Source: Cyclobacteriaceae bacterium (GTDB taxonomy: Bacteria > Bacteroidota > Bacteroidia > Cytophagales > Cyclobacteriaceae). Taken from it: a DNA stretch of 64,000 nt. A model generated the notes under the pieces. The model was not told the DNA's origin, did no database searches, and saw only the letters and a list, made by a program, of their open reading frames with translations. Below, one piece after another: positions 1,098 to 47,453 of this stretch. The DNA is taken from contig JANPBK010000073.1 of assembly GCA_031430395.1 (NCBI GenBank), positions 15,099 to 79,098 of the forward strand. The letters run 5' to 3'. How positions within the stretch are numbered: the first letter of the stretch is position 1; every line of letters begins with the position of its first letter. The translations under genes were made by a program, and so were the position numbers.

Positions 1098-2438
1098 ATG
1101 CCCAAATTAATTACCACGCGCACGCGTATTGCAGACTTGGGCAAGCCGCGTGTTATTATAATTGGAGGCGGTTTTGGAGGACTTGAGGTTATAAAAGGTC
1201 TTCGTGGACTAAAAGCCCAAACTGTACTTTTTGATAAATACAACCATCACACCTTTCAACCACTACTATATCAAGTCGCAACTTCTGGTCTAGAAACCAA
1301 CTCAATTGTTGCTCCTTTTCGCAAACTTTTTAGAAATCACGATGATTTTTACTTCCGCTTAGGAGAAGTAAAGAGAATACGACCAGAGGAAAATAGCATA
1401 GAAACCTCAATCGGTGAGGTAAAGTATGACTATTTGGTAATCGCCAGTGGAGCGGTCACTAACTTTTATGGAATGACTGAGTTGGAAAAGAATTCCTCCT
1501 ACATGAAGAACATCGTGGATGCCACCAAACTCCGTAACAAAATCATTCGACATTTAGAATATGCATTGCTAACAGAAGATATTGAGGTGATGAACAGCCT
1601 AATGGATTTTGTGATTGTTGGTGGGGGCCCAACAGGTGTAGAACTTGCAGGTGCCTTAACGGAATTGAAGAAGAACGTATTTCCAAAAGACTATAAAGAA
1701 TTGGACATGCGAGAAATGGATATTCATCTGGTTGAAGCTAGTCCTCGATTGTTAAATGGTATGAGTGCTCAAGCCTCTGAGAAAGCGCACGAGTTTCTCA
1801 CTAAGATGGGTGTCAAAATCCATTTGGATACGGCCGTCAAGTCGTATGATGGTTATGAGGTACAATTAAGTTCTGGTGAAAAATTAATATCACGATCTCT
1901 CATTTGGGCTGCCGGGATCAAGGGAAATCCTATTGCCGGATTGAAAGAAGAAAATATTACTCGCGGGAATCGATTGTTGGTAGATGAATACAACCGCGTA
2001 AAAGGGTCTGACAATATCTTCGCCATTGGAGATGTAGCCCTCATGGAAGGAGATGAGAAATTTCCAAAAGGTCACCCTCAAATGGCCCCTCCTGCACAAC
2101 AACAAGGCAGACTAGTCGCTAAGAATATTAGAAATATTATAAATAAGAAACCTCTCAAGCCGTTTACTTATTTTGATACAGGTGCGATGGCAACGATTGG
2201 TCGTAATAAGGCAGTAGTGGACATGAAAGGAGGCATCCGTTTCCAAGGTGTGTTTGCCTGGTATGTTTGGATGTTCATCCATCTGATGGCTATTGTAGGG
2301 TGGAAAAACCGCGTATTTACTTTCTTTAGTTGGATGTGGAATTACTTCTCATTTGATAGAAGTAACCGCTTAATCATTGGTCGTAATGAAGAGAAAATAA
2401 TTCAGGAAGAAACAAAGTTACCAGAAGAAATAGCCTGA
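1098..2438 (+). CDS. ndh: Type II NADH:quinone oxidoreductase (NDH-2)
   Basis: Two Rossmann motifs (IIGGGFGG, IVGGGPTGVE), HTFQPLLYQVAT, IFAIGD, and C-terminal membrane-anchor helices. Confidence 0.9.
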   Translation: MPKLITTRTRIADLGKPRVIIIGGGFGGLEVIKGLRGLKAQTVLFDKYNHHTFQPLLYQVATSGLETNSIVAPFRKLFRNHDDFYFRLGEVKRIRPEENSIETSIGEVKYDYLVIASGAVTNFYGMTELEKNSSYMKNIVDATKLRNKIIRHLEYALLTEDIEVMNSLMDFVIVGGGPTGVELAGALTELKKNVFPKDYKELDMREMDIHLVEASPRLLNGMSAQASEKAHEFLTKMGVKIHLDTAVKSYDGYEVQLSSGEKLISRSLIWAAGIKGNPIAGLKEENITRGNRLLVDEYNRVKGSDNIFAIGDVALMEGDEKFPKGHPQMAPPAQQQGRLVAKNIRNIINKKPLKPFTYFDTGAMATIGRNKAVVDMKGGIRFQGVFAWYVWMFIHLMAIVGWKNRVFTFFSWMWNYFSFDRSNRLIIGRNEEKIIQEETKLPEEIA

Positions 2439-2452
2439 GGTACTGATATATC

Positions 2453-4453
2453 ATGGATTCAATTTCAAAAAAACATTCCCTTTCAGCAGCCGGAGTTTTA
2501 GTAGCGATGGGAATTATCTATGGGGACATTGGCACCTCTCCTATTTATACACTACGTTTTATTGTTGGTCATCGTGCCGTTTCTGAAGAATTAATCCTCG
2601 GAGGACTTTCGTTGGTATTTTGGACGCTCACCATTATTACGACTATAAAATACGTATACTTAGCACTTAGCGCAGACAATAAAGGAGAGGGTGGTATTTT
2701 CGCACTTTACGCACTCGTTAGAAAATATCGAGCAGGGTGGGTAATATTCCCTGCCATCATTGGCTGTTGTACATTAATTGCAGATGGTTTTATGACTCCT
2801 GCCATGAGTGTTACATCGGCAGTGGAGGGGATAAAAACACTCATGCCTTCCATTTCTGATCAGACCATTATTACGATCGTAATCATTATTCTCGTAGCTC
2901 TTTTTGTATTCCAGCAATTTGGTAGCAGTGTAGTCGGAAAAACATTTGGACCCGTCATGTTGGTTTGGTTTGTTTTTATTGGGGCAATTGGTGCTTATCA
3001 CCTATCGTTCAATTTTGGTGTTCTAAAAGCTATCAACCCAAACTATGGAGTTAATTTACTGCTAAAATACCCTGGAGGATTCTGGATTCTAGGAGCGATT
3101 TTCTTATGTACAACTGGAGCCGAGGCCATGTACTCGGATCTTGGTCATTGTGGAAAATCAAACATTCGGTTAGGCTGGGGATTTGTAAAAGTATGTTTGC
3201 TACTTAGTTATTTTGGCCAGGGTGCTTGGCTACTATCTTCATTCGAAGGGAAACCACTGGGCGAAACGATCCCATTCTTTTCAATGATGCCCGGATGGCT
3301 ATTAATCTTTGGGGTAATCATTGCTACGATGGCCACGGTCATTGCAAGCCAGGCCTTAATCTCCGGCACATTTACACTTGTCAACGAAGCGATGAAGTTA
3401 AAGTTGTGGCCTGCTACTCGTGTGCGTTACCCTAGCCAAATGAAAGGTCAAATTTATATTCCAGCGATCAACTGGATTCTGATGTTTGGTTGCATTTTGG
3501 TAGTACTTTATTTTAAAGCTTCCGATAAAATGCAGTCGGCCTACGGCTTGGCTATTACCTTTGATATGTTAATGACCACTTCTTTGCTGGTGTACTATTT
3601 TTCAACCGTTAAAAAATCAACGATCCGATCTACTCTTTTAGCCATTCTATTCTTTACGGTAGAGACTGCTTTCTTGATTTCTAACCTGAGCAAATTTTCT
3701 CATGGCGGTTGGTTCTCATTCTCTATCGCGTTAATTTTCTTTTTGATGATGTTCATTCTACTGCGAGCTCGAGAGCTTAGAGACCGTCATACCGAGTTTG
3801 TTGACTTGAAACATTATATACCGCTCATCCAAGACTTGCAAGCGGATACTTCCATCCCTCGAGAAGCAACTAATTTAGTTTACATGGCTGTTGCAGATAG
3901 TAAGCGATACATTGATTCTAATATCATTTATTCCATTTTCAAAAAACGGCCGAAGAAAGCAGATGTATACTGGTTTGTACATGTTGATACAGTAGATAGT
4001 CCGTTTACTTCAAAATATTCTGTGGACACGATCATTCCTAAAAAATGCTTTTTTGTTAGGATCAAACTTGGATTTAAAGCAGACCATCGTGTGAACCTGC
4101 TGTTTAATAGAATTTTGCATGACATGGCCGAAGCAGCCGAGATTGACTTGATCAGTCATTATGAATCGCTTCAAAAACACAGTATGCCTTCAGATTTTAA
4201 GTTCATTATGCTCCACTCGTTAGCTTCAGTAGATAGTGAAATATCCAGCTTTGATAATTTTATCATACAGGGATACCGATTCATTAAGAAACACAGCTTA
4301 TCTACAGAAGAAATGTATGGTTTAGAACTAGCTAATGTAGAAGTAGAACGTGTCCCTATTATGGTTGGTCCTCCTGCTAAAGTGCGCATCAAACGAGAAA
4401 AGGAAGACCTGGAACGCGAAAAAGAGCTTAAATACCACGGGCATATCAATTGA
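2453..4453 (+). CDS. kup: KUP/HAK/KT family potassium transporter
   Basis: GIIYGDIGTSPIY, ADNKGEGGIFALY and TGAEAMYSDLGH signature motifs; about 12 TM segments plus a cytoplasmic tail. Confidence 0.95.
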   Translation: MDSISKKHSLSAAGVLVAMGIIYGDIGTSPIYTLRFIVGHRAVSEELILGGLSLVFWTLTIITTIKYVYLALSADNKGEGGIFALYALVRKYRAGWVIFPAIIGCCTLIADGFMTPAMSVTSAVEGIKTLMPSISDQTIITIVIIILVALFVFQQFGSSVVGKTFGPVMLVWFVFIGAIGAYHLSFNFGVLKAINPNYGVNLLLKYPGGFWILGAIFLCTTGAEAMYSDLGHCGKSNIRLGWGFVKVCLLLSYFGQGAWLLSSFEGKPLGETIPFFSMMPGWLLIFGVIIATMATVIASQALISGTFTLVNEAMKLKLWPATRVRYPSQMKGQIYIPAINWILMFGCILVVLYFKASDKMQSAYGLAITFDMLMTTSLLVYYFSTVKKSTIRSTLLAILFFTVETAFLISNLSKFSHGGWFSFSIALIFFLMMFILLRARELRDRHTEFVDLKHYIPLIQDLQADTSIPREATNLVYMAVADSKRYIDSNIIYSIFKKRPKKADVYWFVHVDTVDSPFTSKYSVDTIIPKKCFFVRIKLGFKADHRVNLLFNRILHDMAEAAEIDLISHYESLQKHSMPSDFKFIMLHSLASVDSEISSFDNFIIQGYRFIKKHSLSTEEMYGLELANVEVERVPIMVGPPAKVRIKREKEDLEREKELKYHGHIN

Positions 4454-11181: not shown

Positions 11182-12435
11182 ATGTTTCGAATTATTCTCT
11201 TCTTGCTTTTCGTCAGTTCTTATTCCCACCTAAGCATTGCACAAACAGAGAAAAAATCGATCAAAGGCAAAGTCATTGATGCTACCACAAAAGAACCACT
11301 GCCTTTTGTTAACGTGTTCTTAGCGAACACCACTATTGGTACTAGCACTAGTATTGACGGAAGCTTTGTTATCTCCGGGGTTCCTGCAGGAAAATATGAT
11401 TTAATTGTTTCTACGATAGGATATCTTCCATTTTCTCAGCAAGTCGATTTTTCTGAGATGACACAAGGATATACAAAAGAGCTAAATATCAATATTGAGC
11501 TAAATCAAGAAACAAAAGTACTAAATGAGATTATCGTTAAACCTGACACCATTAACTGGGCTCGAAATTTTGCCTATTTTAAAAGGCATTTCCTGGGAGA
11601 AACACACCTCTCATCAAAATGTAAAATTCTTAACCCAAAAGTTCTTCATTTTTATTTAGATACGTTAGATGGTGTGTTAGTGGCACATGCCAAACAACCT
11701 ATTGAAATAGAAAATCTCGGTTTAGGTTATAAGATCATCTATTATTTATACCAATTCGAATATAAATACAGAGAAGGTGCCCTTTTTGTTTATGGTCTTC
11801 CTCGCTATGAGGAATTAAAAGCGACTAAAGAGAAAGACCTGAAAAAGTGGAAGAAGGAACGAGAAAATGCTTATCGAGGGTCGGTCATGCATTTTATGAG
11901 AAGTCTTCGTGAAAATTCAATTACTTCAAACAAATTTTCTATTCGAAAAATCTATCATGTAAAAAATAGAAAACGTCCTGCGGATAGCCTGATTAACAAG
12001 AAAATTCAAGCGCTAATGAAAGACAAAAAAACAATAGTTATTGATTATTCCAATAACCCAAAAGACAGCCTATCCTACTATTTACGTTTAAAGTCTCAGC
12101 CAAAAGAGATTGATAGTATTCCATCAAACTTTTATTCTGGTAGAGAATTCTGGAATGAATCAAGTAATACGTTTGAAAATATTAAAGGAAGGTATGAAGT
12201 CATATATGATGAAAAAGAAGAAGTTGAATACCTTTGGGTAGCTGGAAGGAATCATACTACAAAGCAAAAAAGTACATTCCAATTCTTACAAGATTCTCTC
12301 AAAATTTTTGAGAACGGATACTATGAAGATGTTCGTTGCCTCTTCGTAGAAGGGTATCTTTCATGGCACGAGAAATTATCCACCTTGATGCCTTTAGAGT
12401 ATTCTTCAGAAGTGTCCGATAGCGAACGCGAATGA
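11182..12435 (+). CDS. Carboxypeptidase-regulatory-like domain protein with C-terminal domain of unknown function
   Basis: ATG 11182 preferred over TTG 11113; signal peptide, then IKGKVIDATTKEPLPFVNVFLANTTIGT; ends LMPLEY. Confidence 0.8.
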   Translation: MFRIILFLLFVSSYSHLSIAQTEKKSIKGKVIDATTKEPLPFVNVFLANTTIGTSTSIDGSFVISGVPAGKYDLIVSTIGYLPFSQQVDFSEMTQGYTKELNINIELNQETKVLNEIIVKPDTINWARNFAYFKRHFLGETHLSSKCKILNPKVLHFYLDTLDGVLVAHAKQPIEIENLGLGYKIIYYLYQFEYKYREGALFVYGLPRYEELKATKEKDLKKWKKERENAYRGSVMHFMRSLRENSITSNKFSIRKIYHVKNRKRPADSLINKKIQALMKDKKTIVIDYSNNPKDSLSYYLRLKSQPKEIDSIPSNFYSGREFWNESSNTFENIKGRYEVIYDEKEEVEYLWVAGRNHTTKQKSTFQFLQDSLKIFENGYYEDVRCLFVEGYLSWHEKLSTLMPLEYSSEVSDSERE

Positions 12436-12448
12436 CTTAATTCGAACG
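12413..12448. promoter_or_regulatory. Putative tandem enhancer (bEBP) sites, copy 2
   Basis: TGTCCG-ATAG-CGAACG (12413-12428, inside the 3' end of the upstream CDS) and TGACTT-AATT-CGAACG (12433-12448). Confidence 0.55.
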
Positions 12449-12500
12449 TTTCTTTTAACGAAAAACGCCTTTACAAGCTAGATTTACATTATCACCTAGA

Positions 12501-12594: not shown

Positions 12595-15039
12595 ATGCTA
12601 CACAGCTTAAAAATCGTGTTCCGCCACCTTGGCCGTCAAAAGCTCAATAGCTCCTTGCACATTATAGGCCTTACACTTGGCCTGAGTGTTTGTCTGGTAA
12701 TTGGGCTTTTCATCCGGTATGAATTGAGTTTTGATGGCTACCATGAAAAAGCAGACCGCACCTATCGAATTATTTCAAAGTGGACACAAAATGGTAAATC
12801 CGATTACCACTTTTCTACTCCCTTTCCATTAGCAAATGTAATTCGTACTGAAGCAACAGGACTTGAGCATGTGAGTTTTGCACATCCCGTTTATACCAAA
12901 ATTGTAGAAGTAAGCCCACAAAAGAAATTTATTGATGAGCGCATCATGGCGGTAGAGCCAGAGTTTCTCGATATTTTTAAAGTAGAAACTCTAAAAGGTG
13001 ACCTATACAAAACACTTCGCACTCCGTATCAAGCCGCACTTACAGAATCTACTGCCAAAAAACTTTTTGGCAGTGAAGACCCCATCGGAAAAACAATAAG
13101 TTTTACTGTTCGCGATAAATTCGAATTTACTGTTGGGGCTCTCATCAAAGACTTCCCTTCTAACACGCATCTGCCAGCTTCCATGCTAGTGTCGTATTCG
13201 TATGCAGAAAAATTTCTGCAACCCAATTTAGATGGATGGACGTATGTTTCCGGAACGGAGACATTGATCGTGGTTCCAGAAAATGCTGATATGAAGCTTA
13301 TACTAGCTCAAATCAAAACGATTGGTGACAAGCATATCAATGCAAAAGAAAATTTACCTGAATTCAAAAGCGAACTTGAAATTCAGCCACTGAGCGAAGT
13401 TCATTTTAATAGCTCGTTTGCAGGCGGTGGCAATTGGGTAAAAGCTGTATCAGTCAGTTGGTTGTGGTTTTTTGGCATCATTGGTATAGCCGTATTAGTG
13501 TTGGCATGTATTAACTTCATCAACTTATCTACTGCTCAAGCGCTGACACGCGCAAAAGAAGTAGGTGTGCGTAAGTCCGTTGGAGCAGGAAGATTCAATC
13601 TGATAGCTCAATTTTTATCAGAGGCTTGGATACTGACGTTTGTATCAGGAATATTTGCAGTTGCCATTGCCCAATTGGTAATGCCCAATATCAATACATT
13701 ATTGGATAAAAATATCCCCTTCGATCTCACCAAATCACCCATGTTACTTCTTTTTATTTTAGGAGCAGTGATCTTTATTGGATTGATGGCTGGAATTTAT
13801 CCGGCTTGGGTAATTTCGAAATTCAATCCATCACTTACATTAAAGGCTGGATCAACTTCATCGGGAGATCATGGCTCTGCCTGGTTACGCAAAGGACTAG
13901 TGGTAACTCAATTCAGTCTTTCAATTGGCCTGTTAATGGTTGTACTCTTGATTGCCCAACAAGTTAATTTTCTTCGCAATAAGAATCTAGGATTTACGAA
14001 AGACAATATTGTAAATGTTGAAATTCAACCACGTGCTCTCCAACATAATCTGTTTAAAAACGAACTTGAAAAAATAAATCAAGTGAAAGATGTTTCATTT
14101 GCCACTGCTACTCCCAGCAGCCAAGGCCATTGGGGAACCATCATGAATCGAACCGGCAGAGAAGATCCATCCAGAAAAGAAGTGACCCTAATTTTCGCTG
14201 ATGATCGCTTTTGCAAAATGTACGGATTGGAATTGCTGGCAGGTCGATTTCTTGAAGCCTCCGACACCAACTACGTGGCTACGTCAGTAGCTGAAAAAGA
14301 TCAAATTATGAAGGCTGTAGTCAATGAGCAGCTGATCAAGGAACTGGCGTATAAATCAAATGAAGAAGCGATTGGCCAACGCATATGGGTTGGTTGGAAT
14401 AGTGGCAACTTAGAAATCGTAGGTGTGGTTCGTGATTTTAACACTGGATCATTACATGAAGCTATCAAATCAGCATTGATCACTCCAAATCCAAGAGACT
14501 ACGAGCAGGCAGGAATAAAAATCGAGGCGAATAGCAATGTACCTGAAACAATAGCCGCCATAGAAACTGCTTGGAAAACAACTTATCCCGAAGGAATTTT
14601 TACTTACAAATTCTTAGACGAACAGATAGATAGTTTTTATAAGGCAGAAGAAAGACTTTTTAATCTCTTCAAAATATTCGCTGGCCTTGCCATGTTTATT
14701 TCCTGTTTAGGTCTATGGGGGTTGGCTACGTTCTCGGCTCAGTCAAGAACCAAAGAAATCGGAATTCGGAAAGTTCTTGGAGCGTCCGTAGATAAAATTG
14801 TGTTGTTACTTTCAAAAGATTTTTTGCTGCTAGTTTTAATTGCATTGGTGATTGCCACTCCACTAGCATGGTACGGCATGAATCAATGGTTACAAAACTA
14901 TGCTTTCCGTACAGAAATTACTTGGTGGATATTTGGATTTTCGGGAATGATAGCAATAACAATTGCTATCATAACAGTGAGTTTTCAAGCCGTCAAAGCA
15001 GCAATTAGTAATCCTGTAGAAAGTTTGAGAAGCGAATAA
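12595..15039 (+). CDS. MacB/FtsX-type ABC permease, paralog 2
   Basis: 814 aa; LACINFINLSTAQ..RAKEVGVRKSVGA; RTKEIGIRKVLGA; NPVESLRSE. Confidence 0.9.
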   Translation: MLHSLKIVFRHLGRQKLNSSLHIIGLTLGLSVCLVIGLFIRYELSFDGYHEKADRTYRIISKWTQNGKSDYHFSTPFPLANVIRTEATGLEHVSFAHPVYTKIVEVSPQKKFIDERIMAVEPEFLDIFKVETLKGDLYKTLRTPYQAALTESTAKKLFGSEDPIGKTISFTVRDKFEFTVGALIKDFPSNTHLPASMLVSYSYAEKFLQPNLDGWTYVSGTETLIVVPENADMKLILAQIKTIGDKHINAKENLPEFKSELEIQPLSEVHFNSSFAGGGNWVKAVSVSWLWFFGIIGIAVLVLACINFINLSTAQALTRAKEVGVRKSVGAGRFNLIAQFLSEAWILTFVSGIFAVAIAQLVMPNINTLLDKNIPFDLTKSPMLLLFILGAVIFIGLMAGIYPAWVISKFNPSLTLKAGSTSSGDHGSAWLRKGLVVTQFSLSIGLLMVVLLIAQQVNFLRNKNLGFTKDNIVNVEIQPRALQHNLFKNELEKINQVKDVSFATATPSSQGHWGTIMNRTGREDPSRKEVTLIFADDRFCKMYGLELLAGRFLEASDTNYVATSVAEKDQIMKAVVNEQLIKELAYKSNEEAIGQRIWVGWNSGNLEIVGVVRDFNTGSLHEAIKSALITPNPRDYEQAGIKIEANSNVPETIAAIETAWKTTYPEGIFTYKFLDEQIDSFYKAEERLFNLFKIFAGLAMFISCLGLWGLATFSAQSRTKEIGIRKVLGASVDKIVLLLSKDFLLLVLIALVIATPLAWYGMNQWLQNYAFRTEITWWIFGFSGMIAITIAIITVSFQAVKAAISNPVESLRSE

Positions 15040-15110: not shown

Positions 15111-17459
15111 ATGCTAAAGAGTTATTTAAAAATCGCCCTTCGTTCTTTGATCAAGAACAAAACCTATTCTTTCATTAACATTGCAGGGCTATCGGTTGGC
15201 ATTGCCGTAAGCCTTATCATTTTTCTCTATGTAGTGCATGAATACAGTTATGATAAATTTCACGCTAAGGGCGATAACATCTATCGCATTCTGTGTAAAA
15301 TAAACTATGGAGGGCAGGAAATTCAAACGACCGCCATGTCGGCTCAGTTTGGCCCGATACTAAAAGAGAACAATGCCGATGTAGAAAATTACGTTCGTGT
15401 TTACGGCATAGGAAGAACGCTAATGAAGTCGGACGATAACCATGTCAATTTTGAAAACCAAATCGCTTTCTCTGATACTTCATTCTTCTCAGTTTTTTCC
15501 TTCCCTCTCATTCAGGGTGACTATCGTTTATTGACAAGACCCAGCACAGTAATCATCACAGAAAAAACAGCTATTAAATATTTTGGAAGTAAAGATGCCA
15601 TTGGCAAAACAATTACTTACGACAAAAAATATCCGCTTGAGGTCATTGCTATTGCAAAGGACTTTCCTTCCAATTCCTCCCTACAAGTAGACTTCGTCAT
15701 TTCCTTTAACACGATGGGTATCATTCCGGAAAATAAATCTGCCTATGAACATAAACTAGCAAGCCTAGGCTCTATCCCAACCTACGTAGTTGTAAATGAC
15801 GAACAATCTATTTCCAAAATAATTTCTTCTATTCCCAAGTTTGCCAAAACATCCGTAGATGAAAAATACAGGTTAGAAAAATTTGTGGGTACCCATTTTG
15901 GGAACAATATGGGAGATTCTTCTAATCTCACCTATCTATACCTTTTTATGGCCGTAGCTATTATTATTCTAGTACTAGCACTTATCAATTATATGAACCT
16001 TACCACAGCTCGCGCCACCTTGCGCGGCAAAGAGGTAGGTGTGCGCAAAGTAGTGGGTGCACGCCAGAGTAATCTTGCTTCTCAATTTTATTTTGAATCC
16101 GCTTTAATGACATTGACTGCATTCGCGCTAGCTGCTGTCTGGATAGAACTGTCTTTACCCATTTTCTTAAACATCCTGCAAATTCAAATAGACAAATCAT
16201 TTCTAACAAGTACTTGGTTCTTGAGCGTGATGGCTTCGCTATTGATTAGTTGCATTCTCCTGGCAGGTAGCTATCCTACATTAGTGCTTTCCAGATTTAA
16301 ACCAGCAGAAGTTTTAAAAGGGAAAGCAACTAAAGCAATAGGTAGCAGCGCATGGATACGCAAAGGATTTACTGTTTTTCAGTTCGCTGCCTCTATTGGC
16401 CTAATATTGGTAACACTTGGCATTCAGCATCAGCTAGGGTATTTACGCAATCAAAAAATTGGCCTGAACAAAGAACAAGTGATGGTCGTGAATTTAGATG
16501 CCGAAAGTGCTACTTACTACAACACATTGAAAAATGAATTGCGTGCACTGAGCGGAATCAAAGAGGTAGCTGCCGCTTCGATTCCACTTTATACAACAGG
16601 GTTCAATGCTATGTTTGTAAAAACCCCTACTACGAATGAAGATGTGTTTATCCTGGACTTGTCTGTCGATGAGAATTTTATTTCCACACTTGGGATAGAA
16701 TGGGTAGAAAAACCAGATGCAATTAATAGGCCTGGTCTTATTATCAATGAAGCTGCGTTGGAAGAACTAAAAATTAAAAAAACAGATATTGGTGTTAAGT
16801 TAAACGATCAACCCATCAACGGTATCGTAAAGAATTTTAATTATCAATCGCTTCGTCAAAAAATAAATGGAATGGTTTTATCTATCCAATCTGATACATC
16901 CTCAAGTTTGACGAAGTATGGCGCATCACTTTATTTGCGAATGGATCCCAAAGCTAACCTCACTGATAGAGTTGCTACCGTACAATCCATATTCAAAAAA
17001 TACCAAGGGAATAGACCATTTGAATATTATTTTTTAGATGATGCGTTCGATCAGCTTTATAAATCAGAAGATAGGCTTTCGCAGATTTTTAACATTTTCA
17101 CCATCATCGCCATAGTAATCGCCTGCCTTGGCTTATTTGGATTGATCACATTTACTGCTGAGATGCGAACGAAAGAGATCGGCATTCGAAAAGTACTTGG
17201 CGCCAGCATTCAAAATATTTTCACACTGTTATCGAAAGATTTCATCATTCTTGTACTTGCCGGAGTTGTGTTCGCAATACCCGCTGCATGGTGGTACTTA
17301 CAAAGTTGGTTACAACAGTTCTCATACAAAGCTGAGATACCTTGGTGGTTTGGATTGTTGGCAGCATGTGCAGCATTACTAATTTCTTTCCTAACGATAT
17401 GCACACAGGCTATCAAGGCTGCGGTAAGCAATCCGGTGGAGAGCTTAAGAAGCGAGTAG
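15111..17459 (+). CDS. MacB/FtsX-type ABC permease, paralog 3
   Basis: 782 aa; INYMNLTTARATLRGKEVGVRKVVGA; RTKEIGIRKVLGA; NPVESLRSE. Confidence 0.9.
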   Translation: MLKSYLKIALRSLIKNKTYSFINIAGLSVGIAVSLIIFLYVVHEYSYDKFHAKGDNIYRILCKINYGGQEIQTTAMSAQFGPILKENNADVENYVRVYGIGRTLMKSDDNHVNFENQIAFSDTSFFSVFSFPLIQGDYRLLTRPSTVIITEKTAIKYFGSKDAIGKTITYDKKYPLEVIAIAKDFPSNSSLQVDFVISFNTMGIIPENKSAYEHKLASLGSIPTYVVVNDEQSISKIISSIPKFAKTSVDEKYRLEKFVGTHFGNNMGDSSNLTYLYLFMAVAIIILVLALINYMNLTTARATLRGKEVGVRKVVGARQSNLASQFYFESALMTLTAFALAAVWIELSLPIFLNILQIQIDKSFLTSTWFLSVMASLLISCILLAGSYPTLVLSRFKPAEVLKGKATKAIGSSAWIRKGFTVFQFAASIGLILVTLGIQHQLGYLRNQKIGLNKEQVMVVNLDAESATYYNTLKNELRALSGIKEVAAASIPLYTTGFNAMFVKTPTTNEDVFILDLSVDENFISTLGIEWVEKPDAINRPGLIINEAALEELKIKKTDIGVKLNDQPINGIVKNFNYQSLRQKINGMVLSIQSDTSSSLTKYGASLYLRMDPKANLTDRVATVQSIFKKYQGNRPFEYYFLDDAFDQLYKSEDRLSQIFNIFTIIAIVIACLGLFGLITFTAEMRTKEIGIRKVLGASIQNIFTLLSKDFIILVLAGVVFAIPAAWWYLQSWLQQFSYKAEIPWWFGLLAACAALLISFLTICTQAIKAAVSNPVESLRSE

Positions 17460-17466
17460 TTGCCAT

Positions 17467-17493
17467 GCAACCAAAGCAATTAAAAGGTCGTCT
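17467..17493 (+). promoter_or_regulatory. Putative ECF sigma promoter
   Basis: GCAACC-N16-CGTCT (AAC...CGT ECF pattern), ending 21 nt before ATG 17515. Confidence 0.55.
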
Positions 17494-17514
17494 AATTGAT
17501 AAGGAGATAAACCG

Positions 17515-17901
17515 ATGTTTATGAAAAGTATATTAATCGTACTATTATCGTTAGTATCAATCACGAGCAACGCTCAAAATGATGATCTAATTAACAAGTT
17601 GATTCTTACAACTAAAGAAGGCCTTCAGCAAAAGAAAGAAGTTACCTTCGATAATCAATCAACTAGTTTACAGGTTGGCGAATGGATTATTCCTGTTTCA
17701 AAAAATACGTTGGTTAAAATCGAGTTTGAAAACGGCTACCATGAAGTCGAATTTAATTTACAAAAAGGAACTGTTATAAGAAGCACCGCTGACTCCAATT
17801 GGAGAAGAGCTTCATTCGCTTTATCTTTCAAGTCGCGGAAAGCTGCAAAGAATTTCATTCATTTATTCCGAGAAATAACAGAAAAAGAAAACGTAAACTA
17901 A
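17515..17901 (+). CDS. Small secreted hypothetical protein
   Basis: 128 aa; signal peptide ending SNA|Q; AAGGAG lies 8 nt before the ATG. Confidence 0.7.
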   Translation: MFMKSILIVLLSLVSITSNAQNDDLINKLILTTKEGLQQKKEVTFDNQSTSLQVGEWIIPVSKNTLVKIEFENGYHEVEFNLQKGTVIRSTADSNWRRASFALSFKSRKAAKNFIHLFREITEKENVN

Positions 17902-42266: not shown

Positions 42267-43112
42267 ATGATAAAGCATATCACTCTTAGTTTATTTTTAT
42301 GCGTTGCCCTCAATCAAGCAATTGCCGGAGGCGGCTGGCCACAACCAAAAGGGAAAGGCTACTTTAAATTGTCGCAATCATTCTTAATGTCACCCAGGTA
42401 CTTTGACGGCAACGGAAATATCATTGAACTATCTCCATCCTACGGATATTTTTCGACCAGTTTTTATGGTGAATTTGGATTTACTGACCGACTCACCGGA
42501 ATAATCTATGTGCCGTTTTTTGCGAGGGCCGTTAAAAATGAATTACGATTTAATCAATCCGGAATTGTTGATCCGGGAGCTTCACTCAATTCATTTGGCG
42601 ATACAGATATTGCTATTAAATATGGTCTTATTGTGAATAAGCCGATCGTAGTAAGTGCCACTTTATTATTTGGACTACCCTTAGGCGACAATGGCGCTAC
42701 CAATAGCAGTGCTTTACAAACTGGGGATGGTGAGTTCAATCAAATGCTGCGAATTGATGCGAGTCATTCTTTCTACCCTAAAAAGTTTTATGTTTCAGCA
42801 TATGCAGCCTTCAACAATAGAACAAAGGGTTTTTCTGACGAGGTACGCTTTGGGGCTGAGGTTGGATTAACCTTGAATAAATTCATACCTATTTTTAAAG
42901 TAAGCTCGGTGCATTCACTATTTAATGGCGATGTAGGCATAGTACAAAATAGTATTTTCTCAAATAATACGGAGTTCATTTCACCTTCGCTCGAATTAAA
43001 TTACCAACTGACGGAAAAAATAGGTGTCTCCGGTTCGATTGCCACTGCATTGGCAGCTAGAAATATTTTGGCTTCACCCAACTTTGGGATTGGAGTCTAT
43101 ATGAAGCTTTGA
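42267..43112 (+). CDS. Outer-membrane beta-barrel protein
   Basis: Signal peptide; GGGWPQPKGKGYFKL; YGEFGFTDRLT; LQTGDGEF; alternating strands ending GIGVYMKL; 7 bp after the DM13 gene. Confidence 0.7.
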   Translation: MIKHITLSLFLCVALNQAIAGGGWPQPKGKGYFKLSQSFLMSPRYFDGNGNIIELSPSYGYFSTSFYGEFGFTDRLTGIIYVPFFARAVKNELRFNQSGIVDPGASLNSFGDTDIAIKYGLIVNKPIVVSATLLFGLPLGDNGATNSSALQTGDGEFNQMLRIDASHSFYPKKFYVSAYAAFNNRTKGFSDEVRFGAEVGLTLNKFIPIFKVSSVHSLFNGDVGIVQNSIFSNNTEFISPSLELNYQLTEKIGVSGSIATALAARNILASPNFGIGVYMKL

Positions 43113-43223
43113 AATATTACCAACATCATAAGCAATAGCTATAAACAGATCATAGATCAGCAATGGGTATCAATTCATTGTTGATTTAAATTATTATCTT
43201 TCATTGAACAAATAAAAGATATT

Positions 43224-43592
43224 ATGAAAACGATCGCAACGATTGCTCTACTATTTTGCTTCAACATCAGCCTTGCTCAGATTCTGGTCAATGATGTCGA
43301 TATCAATTCACTGCCGGATCTACGATATATCCAATTATCATATGTAGAGGTGCCTGTTGCGTTCAGTCAAAAGAATGCTAAGGGAACTTTACGAATTGAC
43401 TATGGACAAGATTTTAAAAAAGTAAGAGAACTAATTGTTAAAGATAAGGAAGGGAAAGTGATAGAATTCAATTCGCATATTGATGTATTAAACTTTTTTT
43501 ACAAAAATGGCTGGAGTTTATTCTCCTCCTATACTTTTCCGAGCACAAATAATTATGTGTCGATAAGCACTATTTTGGAAAGGAGACAATAA
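43224..43592 (+). CDS. Small secreted hypothetical protein
   Basis: Signal peptide ending SLA|Q; IDYGQ...KDKEGKVIEFNSHIDVLNFFYKNGW. Confidence 0.7.
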   Translation: MKTIATIALLFCFNISLAQILVNDVDINSLPDLRYIQLSYVEVPVAFSQKNAKGTLRIDYGQDFKKVRELIVKDKEGKVIEFNSHIDVLNFFYKNGWSLFSSYTFPSTNNYVSISTILERRQ

Positions 43593-43659
43593 AAACTTTG
43601 GAGGGCAGGAGGCAATTACAAATTGGAACAATTCGAAATCATACTTGACATCGGACAAT

Positions 43660-43712: not shown

Positions 43713-44732
<1,020 letters not shown>

Positions 44733-44810
44733 TTAAGTGTCAAAAATATACTTCTGTCAAGCGAAAACCAATGTAATAAGTTCAGGTATAGAACTTTTTT
44801 ATAACCAAGG

Positions 44811-44841
44811 TTTGCAATTCAAGGGTAGGAATCTATCTTTG
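44811..44841 (+). promoter_or_regulatory. Bacteroidota housekeeping promoter for tRNA-Glu
   Basis: TTTG (44811-14), 19 nt, then TATCTTTG (44834-41), matching TTTG/TAnnTTTG. Confidence 0.75.
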
Positions 44842-44860
44842 CGCCTCTTTACAGAAAGAC

Positions 44861-44932
44861 GGTCCGTTCGTCTAGGGGTTAGGACACCAGATTTTCATTC
44901 TGGTAACACGGGTTCGATTCCCGTACGGACTA
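44861..44932 (+). tRNA. tRNA-Glu (anticodon UUC), CCA not encoded
   Basis: GGTCCGT/ACGGACT acceptor stem, CCAGA-TT-TTC-AT-TCTGG anticodon arm, ACGGG-TTCGATT-CCCGT T-arm. Confidence 0.97.
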
Positions 44933-44944
44933 CAATAAATGCTT

Positions 44945-44971
44945 AAAAAGCCTCAATTAGAGGCTTTTTTT
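44945..44971 (+). terminator. Terminator after tRNA-Glu
   Basis: AAAAAGCCTC-aatta-GAGGCTTTTTTT. Confidence 0.85.
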
Positions 44972-45145
44972 GTTTACTGCGTATACTTAACCCGCGCTTG
45001 CTCATTTACAATTCTTAATTTCACACCCTACTCTTAAAGCTGTACTAATTAAATAAAACTCAAAAGAATGGCATAGCCTTGAGACGAAACTATTGAGTGC
45101 TGCTGATAATCTAAGATTTATTTCGAAAAAGAGCTAAATTTATAT

Positions 45146-45199
45146 ACCCAATAAACGTATATAGGAGACTCGGTCTACTATAGACAAGAGCTGGGTGCA
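45146..45199 (+). repeat. Degenerate attC-like hairpin upstream of the AT-rich lipoprotein gene
   Basis: ACCCAAT-5nt-TATATAGG-AGAC/tcg/GTCT-ACTATAG-6nt-GCTGGGT; the ends are each one mismatch from RYYYAAC and GTTRRRY. Confidence 0.35.
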
Positions 45200-45275
45200 A
45201 GTGCATAAAGAGCTAAGCGAGAATTCCGACTAAATGCGCGAAATGATTTAGGTAATGGCATGAAATAAGATTCAC

Positions 45276-46187
45276 ATGAGACTGACTGCATTCTTAATGA
45301 TTACCGGGATTCTGACTGTTTTTTCTTGTAAGGAAAATAATCCCTCTCTGAATCCAAATAAAATATCTCCGAGGAAAGACAATGTATCACCGAACTTGGA
45401 CGAATATCGAATATCTAAAATTTTAAATTTTTCGAATTCAACTTCTACTTCACCGGGAGGTGGACTTGAATATACCTACGACTCCAAAGGAAATTTAATC
45501 AAGGAGATATTAATTGATTATCCAAATAAGCTTTATATGTACAAAGTTTATGAAAACACGAATAACAAGAAATCAAGAGAAGAAGTTTATGACGGAGAAG
45601 TAGGGAATCTTACGTTGGGAGCCTATACAGATTATTTCTACACGAATGACAAACTAACAAAGGAGGAATTTCATTCGACTAAAGGGACATTAAATTACTC
45701 AACGATTTATCAATATGATGGAGATAAATTAATTAACACATACAAAGATGGGGCAGGTCTTGGAATACATCATCAATATAAATATACATTTGACGATAAA
45801 GATAGACTGATATTGGAACAAGTATTTATGTATGACCGTGAATTGAGTGAATTCACGAAATACATTTACGATAACAATGACAGATTAATTAAAACGGAAT
45901 TATATAATCATAACAGCACCTTAACATCTTACGTTAAGAATGTGTACGAAGGAGCGAATGATCTTCCAACGAAAGAATTGCATTACGACAATAATGATTC
46001 ACTGACTTACACCAGAGAGTTGACCTATGATAAATGGGGTAATCTGATCGAAGCTAATTATAATGGAACTTGTACGATATTTAAGAGAAAGTATAACGGT
46101 CGCCTTTTAACTGAAGACATTAAGTTTGCTACAACTAAAGGTTGTGAAGAGTGGACTGTTAGCAGATATGAATATGTTAAGAAGTGA
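45276..46187 (+). CDS. Lipoprotein with YD-like (Y.YD..G/DRL) repeats, visibly AT-rich
   Basis: Lipobox FS-C; YTYDSKGNLIKE, YQYDGDKLI, YTFDDKDRLI, YIYDNNDRLIK, LTYDKWGNLIE. Confidence 0.75.
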   Translation: MRLTAFLMITGILTVFSCKENNPSLNPNKISPRKDNVSPNLDEYRISKILNFSNSTSTSPGGGLEYTYDSKGNLIKEILIDYPNKLYMYKVYENTNNKKSREEVYDGEVGNLTLGAYTDYFYTNDKLTKEEFHSTKGTLNYSTIYQYDGDKLINTYKDGAGLGIHHQYKYTFDDKDRLILEQVFMYDRELSEFTKYIYDNNDRLIKTELYNHNSTLTSYVKNVYEGANDLPTKELHYDNNDSLTYTRELTYDKWGNLIEANYNGTCTIFKRKYNGRLLTEDIKFATTKGCEEWTVSRYEYVKK

Positions 46188-46200
46188 GAGGTAGCACCAG

Positions 46201-46330
46201 TGCCCACCAAATGTTGAAGCAATGGCGCGGTGAAGTATAGGTTATTAGGTTTTGTCTTCGTTCTTCGTTTAGTTTCAGGGAAAGGACGCTGCTTCGAAAG
46301 CGCGCCACAGCAGACAATCGTTATTGGGAA
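46201..46330 (+). repeat. attC-like long imperfect palindrome just after the lipoprotein stop
   Basis: CCCA (46203)/TGGG (46325), TTG/CAA, GC-aa-TGGCGCG (46223)/CGCGCCA (46301)-ca-GC, GAAG/CTTC; GTT at 46320; begins 13 nt after the stop. Confidence 0.45.
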
Positions 46331-46682
46331 TGTGGCCGGCAAAAAATTCAACTAACAGGGTGTTACATTACTAGCAAACATTTCAGCACAGGGACAAACG
46401 ACCGACTTCAAAGACGACTGAGAAAATTTTGAATTGACAGACATATAAAATAGTAGTGGCAGCGGACGGTGTCGACCAACTCGACAACTTTTGGTTCACG
46501 CGCAAAACTTGGACGACTTTACCCAATCGAATTTATTTTATCACTAAGACAATATTTTCCACGCGGTGGAGAAAGAGTATCTCGCGACAGCGTGATTTTA
46601 TTCGATTTGAGAAATGCTATTTAGAAAAATAGAATTAAGAAAAATTCAAGTACCGTAGTGCTATTTGGGGTACCACATACTA

Positions 46683-47453
46683 CTACTCTCCTCCCCCTCC
46701 AGACTGAATTTCATAAGAAGTGAGCATGGCCCCAAAATATTCACGATTCATACGGGCAATGTTTGCGACTTTGATTCCTTTTGGACATTCAGCTTCGCAG
46801 GCATAGGTATTCGTGCAAGACCCAAATCCTTCGGCATCCATTTGTGCCACCATTTTTTCGGCACGCTCCTTCCGCTCAACTTGACCTTGGGGCAACAAAG
46901 CAAACTGTGAAACTTTGGCACTGACAAATAACATAGCCGAGGCATTTTTACAAGCCGCTACACAAGCTCCACAACCAATACAAGAAGCCGCATCAAAAGC
47001 CTCCTCCGCAATTCGCTTGGGGATAAGAATCTCGTTCGCATCAGGAACACCACCTGTGTTCACATTTACAAATCCACCTGATTGTTGAATACGATCAAAA
47101 GCTGTACGATCTACTACTAAATCTTTAAGCACCGGAAACGCTTTTGCACGCCAAGGCTCAACCGTAATTGTTTCTCCATCCTTAAACGAACGCATATGAA
47201 GTTGGCAAGTAGTCGTTTGCAGCGGCCCATGTGGATGGCCGTTAATATATAAACTGCACATGCCACAAATACCTTCCCGACAATCATGATCAAAGGCAAT
47301 GGACTCTTCTCCCTTTTTGATCAGATCTGTATTTAAAACATCGATCATTTCCAAAAAAGACATATCGGGAGATGCATGATCTACCTTGTAGGTCTTAAAG
47401 GCTCCCTTTGAATCCCTATTTTTTTGTCTCCAAACTTTGAGTGTGATCTTCAT
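46683..47453 (-). CDS. sdhB: Succinate dehydrogenase/fumarate reductase iron-sulfur subunit
   Basis: [33 protein letters not shown]. Confidence 0.95.

Follow-up and report, generated by a model that had tools for sequence, protein, structure and literature searches.

The stretch of DNA between a tRNA-Glu gene and the sdh genes of this genome raises the question of how a single AT-rich lipoprotein gene came to be placed there, and whether the hairpin-like elements on its two sides mark it as a mobile gene cassette. The sequence analysed (hereafter the window) spans 64,000 nt of chromosome from a Cytophagales-like bacterium of freshwater sediment that has not been cultured. The initial annotation had described the gene as bracketed by attC-like hairpins and as the remnant of a decayed, CALIN-like Bacteroidota cassette array lacking an integrase. 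In this context, our reading is that positions 45190-46322 are very probably one gene cassette of integron type that became stranded in the chromosome and can no longer move, with non-coding cassette debris behind it up to about position 46640. The features on which this reading draws are the following.

44861..44933, forward strand: tRNA-Glu (UUC), left chromosomal flank, outside the cassette (ARAGORN; Rfam tRNA, 63.6 bits).
44945..44969, forward strand: intrinsic-terminator-like hairpin of the tRNA gene (terminator scan: 10-bp stem and T run).
45146..45189, no strand assigned: upstream hairpin, the "short attC" of the initial annotation minus its right box (fold statistics).
45190..45199, forward strand: left cassette boundary, decayed R' core GCTGGGTGCA (ancestral GTTGGGCGCA), where homology across three contexts starts.
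45200..45275, forward strand: cassette 5' leader, conserved with contigs L081 and L211 (alignment).
45276..46187, forward strand: cargo gene, 303-aa lipoprotein with YD/Rhs-type beta-hairpin repeats (ORF list).
46199..46208, forward strand: decayed R'' core AGTGCCCACC (ancestral AGCGCCCAAC), from alignments with L081, L082 and L211.
46206..46322, forward strand: attC-like recombination site of 117 nt, body from the former AAC to GTT (nhmmer and covariance model R1).
46323..46640, forward strand: remnant of a second, non-coding cassette, its attC gone (leader motif; collinearity with L106 and L094).
46460-46520: leader motif of the non-coding cassette class (profile built without the window, E 2.8e-11).
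46576-46629: terminator-like patch in the second-cassette remnant.
46683..47453, reverse strand: sdhB, convergent, right chromosomal flank (ORF list; 88% aa identity to a Cyclobacteriaceae MAG).

The cargo gene itself was described correctly from the outset, being an intact and sole ORF in the interval, with a lipoprotein signal (LTVFSC) and a GC content of 32-36% compared with 42-47% in gap and sdhB. Matches of the protein to Pfam RHS_repeat and NCBIfam YD_repeat were weak, its AlphaFold model is all-beta (pLDDT 88), and Foldseek aligned this model with Rhs and teneurin shells and with Bacteroides "porin-like" proteins, while no PADLOC or immunity-family match was obtained. Among 34 homologues, found in varied contexts, the closest (74% aa) is on contig L081, where it is flanked on both sides by a copy of the element found downstream in the window and a third element of like architecture lies beyond, and the two loci align by blastn at 80.5% over 1093 nt. 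Indeed, the same lipoprotein cassette was found inside arrays on both L081 and L211; more distant homologues (61% and 54% aa) had no adjoining element and stood in unrelated contexts. Syntenic conservation of the gene in relatives, which the initial annotation had set against its own interpretation, was not seen, since among 80 sdhB loci taken from species representatives in GTDB (88% aa at best) none carried gap, tRNA-Glu or the lipoprotein gene within 10 kb. Furthermore, no tyrosine recombinase gene is encoded anywhere in the 64 kb, extending to the whole window what had been noted for the locus; attI is also absent from the window, and an Rfam search of 44700-46800 at E<=10 returned only the tRNA and noise. 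In two sediment metagenomes, the low-depth assembled contigs carrying the locus were identical to the window and showed no cassette-skipping joint, as expected if the cassette is dead.

The evidence for a recombination site comes from the 3' side of the gene. An nhmmer profile built without the window matched 46197-46341 (90 bits, E 7e-26) and nothing else in the 64 kb, and covariance model R1 scored the same site at 80.5 bits (E 2.8e-14). The site is 76% identical to the family consensus and 80% identical over 110 nt to the copies on L081. This element had been annotated as a palindrome of about 130 bp at 46201-46330, and its TGGCGCG/CGCGCCA arms, its terminal GTT and its homologous family all stand; the folding does not, because DNA folds of 46201-46330 were no better than those of shuffled sequences on the top strand (z -0.26) or on the bottom strand (z -0.03), the latter being the check that had been proposed for it. 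In addition, the element was not reported by a repeat scan of the window and was not called by the terminator scan. Its reality is established by homology, not by its own folding.

The window site also bears clear signs of decay. Relative to the family, the R'' triplet AAC has become ACC at 46206-08, whereas GTT is retained at 46320-46322; six of the 16 pairs in the stem no longer match, and 4 nt have been deleted from L'. The minimum free energies (-12.2 kcal/mol top, -10.2 bottom, against family medians of -21.4 and -20.0) place this copy among the worst 3% of the family on the top strand and the worst 0.4% on the bottom strand. At the opposite end of the cassette, the cassette-start GTT has become GCT at 45190-92, so that the G|TT crossover at the left boundary now reads G|CT. 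The counterpart of the R'' core in L081 is complementary to the cassette-start R'; in the window, six of nine complementary bases are left between the cassette ends, each side being two substitutions away from the perfect L081 pair. With both crossover triplets (GTT to GCT, AAC to ACC) and the stem lost, the window copy is dead.

On the 5' side, the initial annotation had read an attC-like element at 45146-45196 (ACCCAAT-5-TATATAGG...ACTATAG-6-GCTGGGT), and these strings are present. Homology across three independent contexts (window, L081/L082 and L211-213) begins exactly at GTTGGGCGCAAGTG, the sequences further upstream being unrelated, and in the arrays the 10-mer at the left boundary and the R'' of the same cassette are complementary. 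Of the boxes, only the right one, GCTGGGT, has a demonstrable meaning: in two other contexts, the cassette start reads GTTGGGC at the aligned positions. As for the rest, the 51-nt element, in a hand-picked segment, folds better than shuffles on the top strand (z -3.2) but weakly on the bottom strand (z -1.5), and has a homologue in none of the fetched loci. It gave no match to R1 at E<=10, although this silence is not decisive because R1 is also blind to the 47-nt hairpins of rAID-1 arrays. Its resemblance to attI junctions is weak (about 8/18 matches, not significant), and by eye no cassette start complementary to its left flank was found between the terminator and position 45145. The hairpin at 45146-45189 may be what is left of a very short site of attC-like or attI-like kind, or a product of chance, which for this hairpin alone is a live possibility. 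Consequently, the description of a gene bracketed by attC-like hairpins holds for the downstream side, and for the upstream side it holds no further than the R' box, which is a real boundary.

Downstream of the site, a segment at 46447-46530 had been taken as the left half of a third element. A conserved motif does lie there (at 46460-46520), but it corresponds to the 5' leader of non-coding cassettes, which in arrays is placed 0-15 nt after an attC, and not to half an attC. The remnant is 85% identical over 54 nt to a cassette on L106, and the ORF-less cassettes of L094 and L106 run collinear with it. Since the window holds only one detectable site, the label "array" rests here on this non-coding remnant. 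A CALIN comprises at least two attC within a few kb with the integrase absent; because nhmmer and the covariance model each detected one attC in 64 kb, the locus is better described as a lone attC (SALIN-like) with debris, and strictly not as a CALIN. The membership in a Bacteroidota cassette family, the decay and the remnant of a second cassette all agree with what was first proposed.

Comparative analysis shows that the window site belongs to a large family of integron-like arrays for gene capture in Bacteroidota, one that has barely been described. A pattern scan found the element on at least 120 metagenome contigs, and the nhmmer profile recovered 311 co-oriented copies in 123 loci, up to 13 per contig, with one in the window. 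The prediction that homologues would flank single variable genes near a tyrosine recombinase was thereby borne out, with hundreds of different genes involved. The constant part starts at AAC and finishes at GTT in 235-250 copies. When the R' flank of each copy was compared with the R'' flank of the next, the 7 nt after GTT were the reverse complement of the 7 nt before the following AAC (at least 6/7 bases) in 154 of 176 consecutive pairs, with a mean complementarity of 6.07 of 7 compared with 3.2 for own or random pairings. Cassettes have a median length of 779 bp and co-oriented ORFs, and almost every one of the 255 ORFs of 220 aa or more is a singleton; in Cytophagales arrays the cargo is very mixed, including restriction-modification genes, a metallo-beta-lactamase-fold protein and hydrolases. 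Duplication of tandem paralogues was considered as the origin of the arrays and rejected, given the singleton cargo and the exact breaks at boundaries.

The hairpin body travels with the gene upstream of it. Bodies that share the upstream ORF end and differ downstream had a median identity of 0.96 (n=51), compared with 0.72 where only the downstream start is shared (n=62) and 0.68 for random pairs. This linkage places the crossover at G|TT, which is also its position in integrons; a crossover on the AAC side, with the hairpin moving with the downstream gene, was rejected on the same figures. The linkage is not absolute, because L211 has the same ORF as the window with a different hairpin body 3' of it, and about one in ten same-ORF pairs have divergent bodies. 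Regarding structure, compensatory changes occur in all 16 stem pairs, G-U pairs are almost absent, and 93.2% of cells are paired compared with 65.8% in shuffles and 35-42% in slid controls. The family hairpin has asymmetric 5-nt and 6-nt spacers, with an A.C mismatch conserved on its top strand; sites measure 80-190 nt, and many copies are more than 90% identical. With R1, co-oriented sites were picked up in Cytophagales, in Bacteroidales and on a plasmid of Chryseobacterium, and Chryseobacterium sp. SNU WT5 (plasmid NZ_CP041688) is an array-bearing isolate; a search of PLSDB plasmids with the attC consensus gave no match.

Array starts were observed in L184, L208, L209, L214/215 and L217; arrays begin right behind a co-oriented tyrosine recombinase and an attI-like junction. 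L214 and L215 share the same recombinase and an identical stretch of about 250 nt downstream, and split exactly after ...AATAG|TTA into different cassettes; similar junctions were seen in L184, L206, L208 and L209. Recombinase P0048 is 50% identical to the Bacteroidales protein P0111, and plasmid-borne recombinases were found by protein search. A regular-expression motif search overlooked the L184 enzyme because it carries YAY instead of YxH; it was located by mapping ORFs at array starts. Clustering of large ORFs recovered no recurrent integrase, because most contigs are fragments of arrays.

Taken as a working system, such an array has the tyrosine recombinase gene at its 5' end, in the same orientation as the cassettes, then an attI-like junction ending in ...TA|GTT, and then up to dozens of co-oriented cassettes. 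Each cassette has the form TTnnnnnnn - leader - ORF - nnnnnnnAAC - hairpin body - G, and the roughly 7 nt that follow its starting GTT are the reverse complement of those, again roughly 7 nt, that precede AAC at its own 3' site. Once excised as a circle, a cassette would therefore have a perfect R''/R' stem that closes a long imperfect hairpin. We infer that the adjacent recombinase catalyses the exchange, that circular cassette intermediates exist and that the site acts as folded single-stranded DNA. The last of these could be wrong, as the recombinase does not have the insertion regarded as necessary for IntI to recognise attC. In the window, the machinery is gone and the sites are dead, and the lipoprotein gene now behaves like any other fixed gene of the chromosome. 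Two histories of its arrival are the most likely: the recombinase inserted one or two cassettes at a secondary site, or an array lost its recombinase end by deletion and left this gene as its final trace.

The alternative that survives best, albeit as an unlikely one, is that the locus is a canonical integron relic, that is, a CALIN or lone attC of a true IntI-type integron, and that the arrays are ordinary integrons not yet catalogued. The layout of the site is classical (RYYYAAC-like R'', 5-nt spacer, L''...L', 6-nt spacer and an R' starting with GTT), the ORF lies upstream of the site, the crossover is at G|TT, and one array holds a group II intron and an IS110 element, as happens in integrons. 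The properties of the array recombinase argue against this explanation: its best NCBIfam match is indeed the integron integrase model TIGR02249, but at 220-221 bits compared with a cutoff of 265, and in two separate stretches. Compared with VchIntIA (2a3v), 19 residues replace IntI residues 180-241, so that the IntI-specific insertion is missing; the enzyme has about 95 extra N-terminal residues, its full-length best PDB match is archaeal XerA, and its gene is co-oriented with the cassettes. Published IntegronFinder surveys also report essentially no integrons in this phylum, listing for Bacteroidetes only In0 elements and one Salinibacter integron.

Far less probable is the explanation that the downstream element is a conserved terminator, 3' UTR or REP-like repeat, co-inherited with tandem paralogues and unrelated to mobility. 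It is true that the element begins 13-18 nt past a stop codon, that it is a hairpin-forming repeat between co-oriented genes and that the window copy has no obvious activity. However, the genes that it flanks are mutually unrelated, each unit has its own 7-10-nt terminal inverted repeat divided between two neighbouring elements, and all copies are co-oriented with the genes and tied to cassette-specific termini. The same gene occurs with unrelated left neighbours, homology stopping exactly at GTT, and one attI is followed by different first cassettes. The near-absence of G-U pairs, the lack of a T run past the stem and the lack of an Rfam match also argue against a terminator. The initial annotation would have yielded to an element without homologues or to a mere terminator or REP; neither was found, given the hundreds of copies and the silence of the terminator scan. 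That the boxes and palindromes are chance patterns in AT-rich intergenic DNA around a lineage-specific lipoprotein gene would suit the shuffle-like fold of the downstream element and the upstream boxes, each one mismatch off consensus and without homologues, but it is scarcely credible in view of the window-free profile match, the identity with the L081 copies and the exactness of the boundary homology.

A stranded cassette of integron type remains our preferred reading, and it invites comparison with systems already described. The arrays resemble classical integrons in that an ORF is followed by R''(..AAC)-L''...L'-R'(GTT..), with a palindrome conserved in structure and not in sequence; in cassette-specific R'/R'' complementarity, the G|TT crossover and an attC moving with the upstream ORF; and in having (in related arrays) attI beside the recombinase, variable cargo, ORF-less cassettes and stranded attC without integrase. 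The classical 59-be has the same 5/6-nt spacing. They differ in a recombinase that does not have the IntI-specific insertion, falls short of the IntI model cutoff, runs in the orientation of the cassettes and is extended at its N-terminus. VCRs are the species-specific attC repeats of sedentary chromosomal integrons, as in Vibrio cholerae; the arrays are alike in their homogeneous site family between hundreds of different small genes and in their length, and unlike in recombinase family and phylum.

The closest relatives, and the only earlier description of such arrays that we found, are the rAID-1 clusters (for recombinase-associated acquired interbacterial defence) of Bacteroidales (Ross et al. 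2019, bioRxiv 10.1101/471110; follow-up 10.1101/2025.05.03.651265). These comprise a tyrosine recombinase of XerD-like type at the 5' end, co-oriented short low-GC genes and intergenic stretches of repetitive sequence "reminiscent of integrons", and are recognised by a recombinase sharing 44% identity or more with BF9343_RS08045, two or more co-oriented genes downstream of it with GC <=41%, and conserved intergenic motifs (10.1101/471110). The accounts found cover gut Bacteroidales only and define the clusters by orphan immunity-gene content; they state the mechanism of biogenesis as unknown and give no cassette boundaries, crossover point or hairpin structure. In a rAID-1-type array of B. ovatus (L216), with SUKH, Imm26, PoNe/PoNi and Tdi1 immunity genes as cargo, the 47-nt intergenic hairpins are bounded by the same rule (nnnnnTAAC-hairpin-A|TTAnnnnn, with complementarity to the next cassette's end). 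The recombinase of this array shares 46% identity with the Cytophagales enzyme P0048, a comparison that serves as a proxy, L216 and not the reference BF9343_RS08045 being the comparator. The related arrays share with rAID-1 the co-oriented low-GC genes and intergenic motifs, whereas in the window there is a single low-GC gene with one decayed motif, and a recombinase is lacking. Unlike rAID-1, the family described here occurs in environmental Cytophagales and Flavobacteriales, with sites of 80-190 nt and very diverse cargo.

It is conceivable, at slightly below an even chance in our estimation, that the Bacteroidota arrays (gut rAID-1, the Cytophagales/Flavobacteriales family and the fossil in the window) form a second integron lineage, with attC-type hairpins of classical layout, a G|TT crossover and an Xer/XerA-like recombinase having a different N-terminal domain instead of the I2 insertion. 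To our knowledge, this insertion is considered indispensable for attC recognition. If real, such a lineage would either reflect how integrons were ancestrally or have arisen anew by convergence, and it would have been overlooked because IntegronFinder-type definitions require an IntI domain. As a dead relic, the object in the window carries little functional weight in itself, and its value lies in leading to a large gene-capture family in a phylum regarded in the integron literature as having essentially no integrons. For this family, an anatomy is newly supplied (exact cassette boundaries, G|TT crossover, covarying hairpin and attI junction), and the range of the system is extended to Cytophagales and Flavobacteriales, a plasmid included. 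The question of whether a tyrosine recombinase without the IntI-specific domain recombines attC-like hairpins also becomes directly testable. Moreover, our data suggest that much of the accessory-gene flux in environmental Bacteroidota, including a cassette encoding a metallo-beta-lactamase-fold protein, runs through these arrays. The arrays also explain the breaks of Bacteroidota short-read assemblies and MAGs directly 3' of these recombinase genes.

Reading of positions 44500-47200 found the sequence boxes quoted in the initial annotation in place, in the following order of features:

43713-44714, minus strand: gap
44861-44933: tRNA-Glu
44945-44969: terminator hairpin of tRNA-Glu
306 nt between terminator and lipoprotein ORF: non-coding DNA
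45276-46187: lipoprotein ORF, intact and single (303 aa, lipoprotein signal)
495 nt between lipoprotein ORF and sdhB: non-coding DNA
from 46683: sdhB-sdhA-sdhC operon, convergent with the lipoprotein ORF

The GC content of the lipoprotein ORF is 32-36%, against 42-47% for gap and sdhB, and at this locus Rfam matched only the tRNA. As initially proposed, no integrase accompanies the gene: no recombinase is encoded within the 64-kb window. Since gap or tRNA-Glu beside sdhB is absent in the ten nearest species representatives, there is no empty site for comparison; contigs identical to the window are present in two freshwater-sediment metagenomes, among whose contigs no joint skipping the cassette was found. 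Without evidence from outside the window, there would be only a weak case for a cassette. In the same neighborhood, a second low-GC stretch (43050-43650, 33-35% GC) lies just past gap and holds a small, secreted-looking ORF (43224-43592, 122 aa), with no cassette site detected in it by nhmmer or by R1, a covariance model of the site family described below. Additionally, a 738-nt contig of a related organism (run X3, contig record 24) matches the sdhB end at 46618-46988, differing at 29 positions and by 7 gaps across 371 nt, the match ending left of ~46618; it may come from a relative in which other DNA lies downstream of sdhB.

A pattern search with the conserved left arm of the downstream element revealed at least 120 metagenome contigs in which this element flanks unrelated genes, and an nhmmer profile made from them, leaving the window out, detected 311 copies in 123 loci among the contigs listed, where co-oriented copies reached 13 on one 13-kb contig. 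Every copy has a conserved part starting with AAC and ending with GTT, between variable flanks. In 154 of 176 consecutive pairs, the 7 nt following GTT were reverse-complementary to the 7 nt that precede the next AAC (at least 6/7 complementary; mean 6.07 vs 3.2 when the two flanks of a single copy, or flanks paired at random, were matched), a pattern that is the classical hallmark of integron cassettes. Cassettes have a median length of 779 bp, with ORFs on the same strand as the sites and a cargo of almost wholly unrelated genes. When copies sharing one flank only were compared, median body identity was 0.96 (n=51) for a shared upstream ORF end and 0.72 (n=62), near the random 0.68, for a shared downstream start; therefore, the site travels with the upstream ORF, and exchange takes place at G|TT, just as it does in integrons. 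Divergent bodies, as exceptions, were seen in about a tenth of the pairs sharing an ORF, and also in L211 (1356-1700), which shares with L081 (1096-1235) the lipoprotein ORF and the R'' flank GCGCCCAA, and has a wholly different hairpin body and the triplet AAT, not AAC. Such bodies may reflect gene conversion or an exchange on the R'' side.

Compensatory changes were observed in all 16 predicted stem pairs, with 93% of cells paired, compared with 66% for shuffled sequences and 35-42% after sliding of the partner. G-U pairs are almost absent, which fits a DNA, not an RNA, structure. The hairpin is asymmetric, because of 5-nt vs 6-nt spacers and a conserved A.C mismatch, read from the sequences on the top strand, which the bottom strand would show as a G.T wobble.

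Regarding the window itself, the profile yielded exactly one match in 64 kb (46197-46341, 90 bits, E 7e-26), and the same cassette occurs in arrays elsewhere, supporting the initial view of a decayed orphan cassette from an integron-like Bacteroidota system. The lipoprotein has 34 homologues, the closest of which (74% aa) is encoded on L081, a 3.5-kb metagenome contig, with the window's downstream element on both sides (80% and 76% identity). The L081 copies fold well (z -3.35 and -2.96) and read GCCCAAC - 5 nt - GTTTCTGCAATGG... ...CCAATGCAGAAAC - 6 nt - GTTAGCG; a third element there, of other sequence and the same architecture, starts with CGCTAAC, the reverse complement of the preceding GTTAGCG. 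This cassette was found independently in the window, in L081/L082, and in L211-213, among which shared homology starts exactly at GTTGGGCGCAAGTG, or GCTGGGTGCAAGTG at 45190 in the window, and sequences to the left are unrelated; therefore, the cassette truly begins, on its left, with the right box of the upstream element.

At the other end, the ancestral R'' GCGCCCAAC has become GTGCCCACC (46200-46208) in the window. The site body (46206-46322) retains 76% identity to the consensus, with a 4-nt deletion in L', a mutated L'', and 6/16 stem pairs broken. Its folding energy (-12.2 top/-10.2 bottom kcal/mol vs family medians of -21.4/-20.0) ranks in the worst 3% (top) and worst 0.4% (bottom) of the family. 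The 130-bp palindrome initially noticed is real by homology, although the window copy folds no better than shuffled sequences (z -0.26 top, -0.03 bottom) and went unreported by the repeat finder. Both crossover triplets required by the cassette carry mutations, and the window encodes no recombinase. The cassette is therefore a fossil, its ORF remaining intact. It may have arisen by insertion of one or more cassettes at a secondary site, or be the tail of an array minus the recombinase end.

Beyond its right box, the upstream 51-nt element is less clearly attC-like. Only its top strand folds better than shuffled sequences (z -3.2, vs -1.5 bottom), and the hairpin at 45146-45189 has no homologues, no significant likeness to attI junctions, and no R1 match, the latter being a weak negative because R1 also misses the 47-nt hairpins of rAID-1 clusters (recombinase-associated acquired interbacterial defence). 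The supposed third element, read initially as half an attC, is instead part of the debris of a second, non-coding cassette at 46460-46640: positions 46460-46520 match a motif profile built without the window (E 2.8e-11), the motif being found in arrays 0-15 nt beyond a site, positions 46576-46629 match the L106 cassette (85% over 54 nt), and the L094 and L106 ORF-less cassettes show the two patches in the same collinear arrangement. Members of this ORF-less (or tiny-ORF) class are:

Window, 46460-46640
L094, 1060-1470, minus strand
L106, 560-1100, minus strand
L097, 12111-12184
L190, 2249-2321
L157, 188-261

Straight after the preceding site, they carry a conserved leader of ~70 nt (CCCGCGGACAGTGACGACC...ACGTTTGTTTTACGC..CTTGGACGACTT), followed by a GC hairpin with a T run and TTTGAGAAAGG; in L157 the same leader sits before a 408-aa ORF. 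These may be promoter, terminator, or small-RNA cassettes. The non-coding remnant is bracketed by a 24-nt direct repeat, 75% identical (46342-46365, AAAAATTCAACTAACAGGGTGTTA; 46640-46663, AAAAATTCAAGTACCGTAGTGCTA), which may be chance or the mark of a rearrangement.

Most contigs are array fragments, and the array starts recovered follow a tyrosine recombinase gene. In L184, this gene (1901-3062) lies directly upstream of the first cassette of an array with at least 15 sites, co-oriented, with two frameshifts (near 2300-2340 and near 2590) that indicate either a pseudogene or an error of assembly; more than 7000 proteins are related to its read-through product, the named ones from Bacteroidota. 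In L208, a 3-Mb assembly, the homologous recombinase P0048 precedes an attI-like junction, ...GCATATATCCGCTA|GTTGTGGGTA, and at least 12 co-oriented cassettes, each ending in an 80-190-nt site that obeys the boundary rule. Moreover, L214 and L215 share the same Bacteroidales recombinase and the next 250 nt, and split exactly after ...AATAG|TTA into different first cassettes, direct evidence that exchange happens at attI. With R1, co-oriented copies were detected in Cytophagales, Bacteroidales, and a Chryseobacterium plasmid, whose recombinase is named by NCBI 'site-specific tyrosine recombinase/integron integrase'. Short-read contigs typically stop just past the recombinase gene, as expected if a repeat array lies beyond. 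Even contigs of 33-168 kb (L206, L207, L214, and those of recombinases P0040/P0041) end ~150-2500 bp after it; therefore, arrays are systematically lost from MAGs and assemblies.

Judged by its sequence, the array recombinase is not a canonical IntI. The best NCBIfam match is the integron-integrase model, in two pieces, at 220-221 bits (cutoff 265 bits). Alignment to the Vibrio IntI structure 2a3v leaves only 19 residues opposite IntI 180-241, so the IntI-specific insertion is missing; ~95 extra residues precede the core-binding domain, and, by sequence, archaeal XerA is its closest structural relative over the full length. The anatomy of the sites and arrays suggests that the recombinase would be active, use single-stranded DNA, and generate circular intermediates. 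More than the fossil, what is of interest is the system to which it leads, which combines classical attC logic with a recombinase lacking the hallmark IntI domain.

In Bacteroidetes, IntegronFinder surveys reported nothing beyond In0 elements and a single Salinibacter integron, and a 2024 preprint lists Bacteroidota among clades earlier found without integrons; our literature search found no description of this site structure or of the Cytophagales family. rAID-1 clusters have been described in gut Bacteroidales (Ross et al., 2019, bioRxiv 10.1101/471110), their biogenesis mechanism being still unknown according to a 2025 follow-up (10.1101/2025.05.03.651265). In this context, the B. ovatus record L216 is a rAID-1-type array with SUKH, Imm26, PoNe/PoNi, and Tdi1 immunity genes and a recombinase 46% identical to P0048; its 47-nt intergenic hairpins obey the same boundary rule (nnnnnTAAC-hairpin-A|TTAnnnnn, complementary to the next cassette's end). 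By analogy with rAID-1, a role of the window lipoprotein in interbacterial defence can only be guessed at, and the protein matched no defence or immunity family. Its structure, predicted with confidence (pLDDT 88), is an all-beta array of YD-type hairpins that resembles parts of Rhs and teneurin shells as well as two 'porin-like' lipoproteins of Bacteroides.

Regarding other cassettes, the one that directly follows the recombinase P0100, in L209 (11294-12307) and in L210 (1430-2443), encodes a predicted 337-aa metallo-beta-lactamase-fold protein (Pfam Lactamase_B), followed in L209 by a family site at 12358-12480. In L208, an ORF-less ~220-nt cassette (11954-12177 and 14518-14747) and a cassette with a 197-aa ORF (11225-11818 and 16312-16905, identical termini GTTGTGGGTA/TACCCACAAC) are each present twice, so cassette duplication occurs inside arrays. 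Classical integrons carry attC-targeting group IIC introns and IS1111-type elements. In parallel, the array of the Chryseobacterium sp. SNU WT5 plasmid (L217, NZ_CP041688) contains an IS110-family transposase gene (13254-14255) and a group II intron (ltrA, 15677-17520; Rfam D1-D4 and domain V matches, minus strand), both opposite in orientation to the cassettes, the 5' end of the intron abutting the site at 17531.
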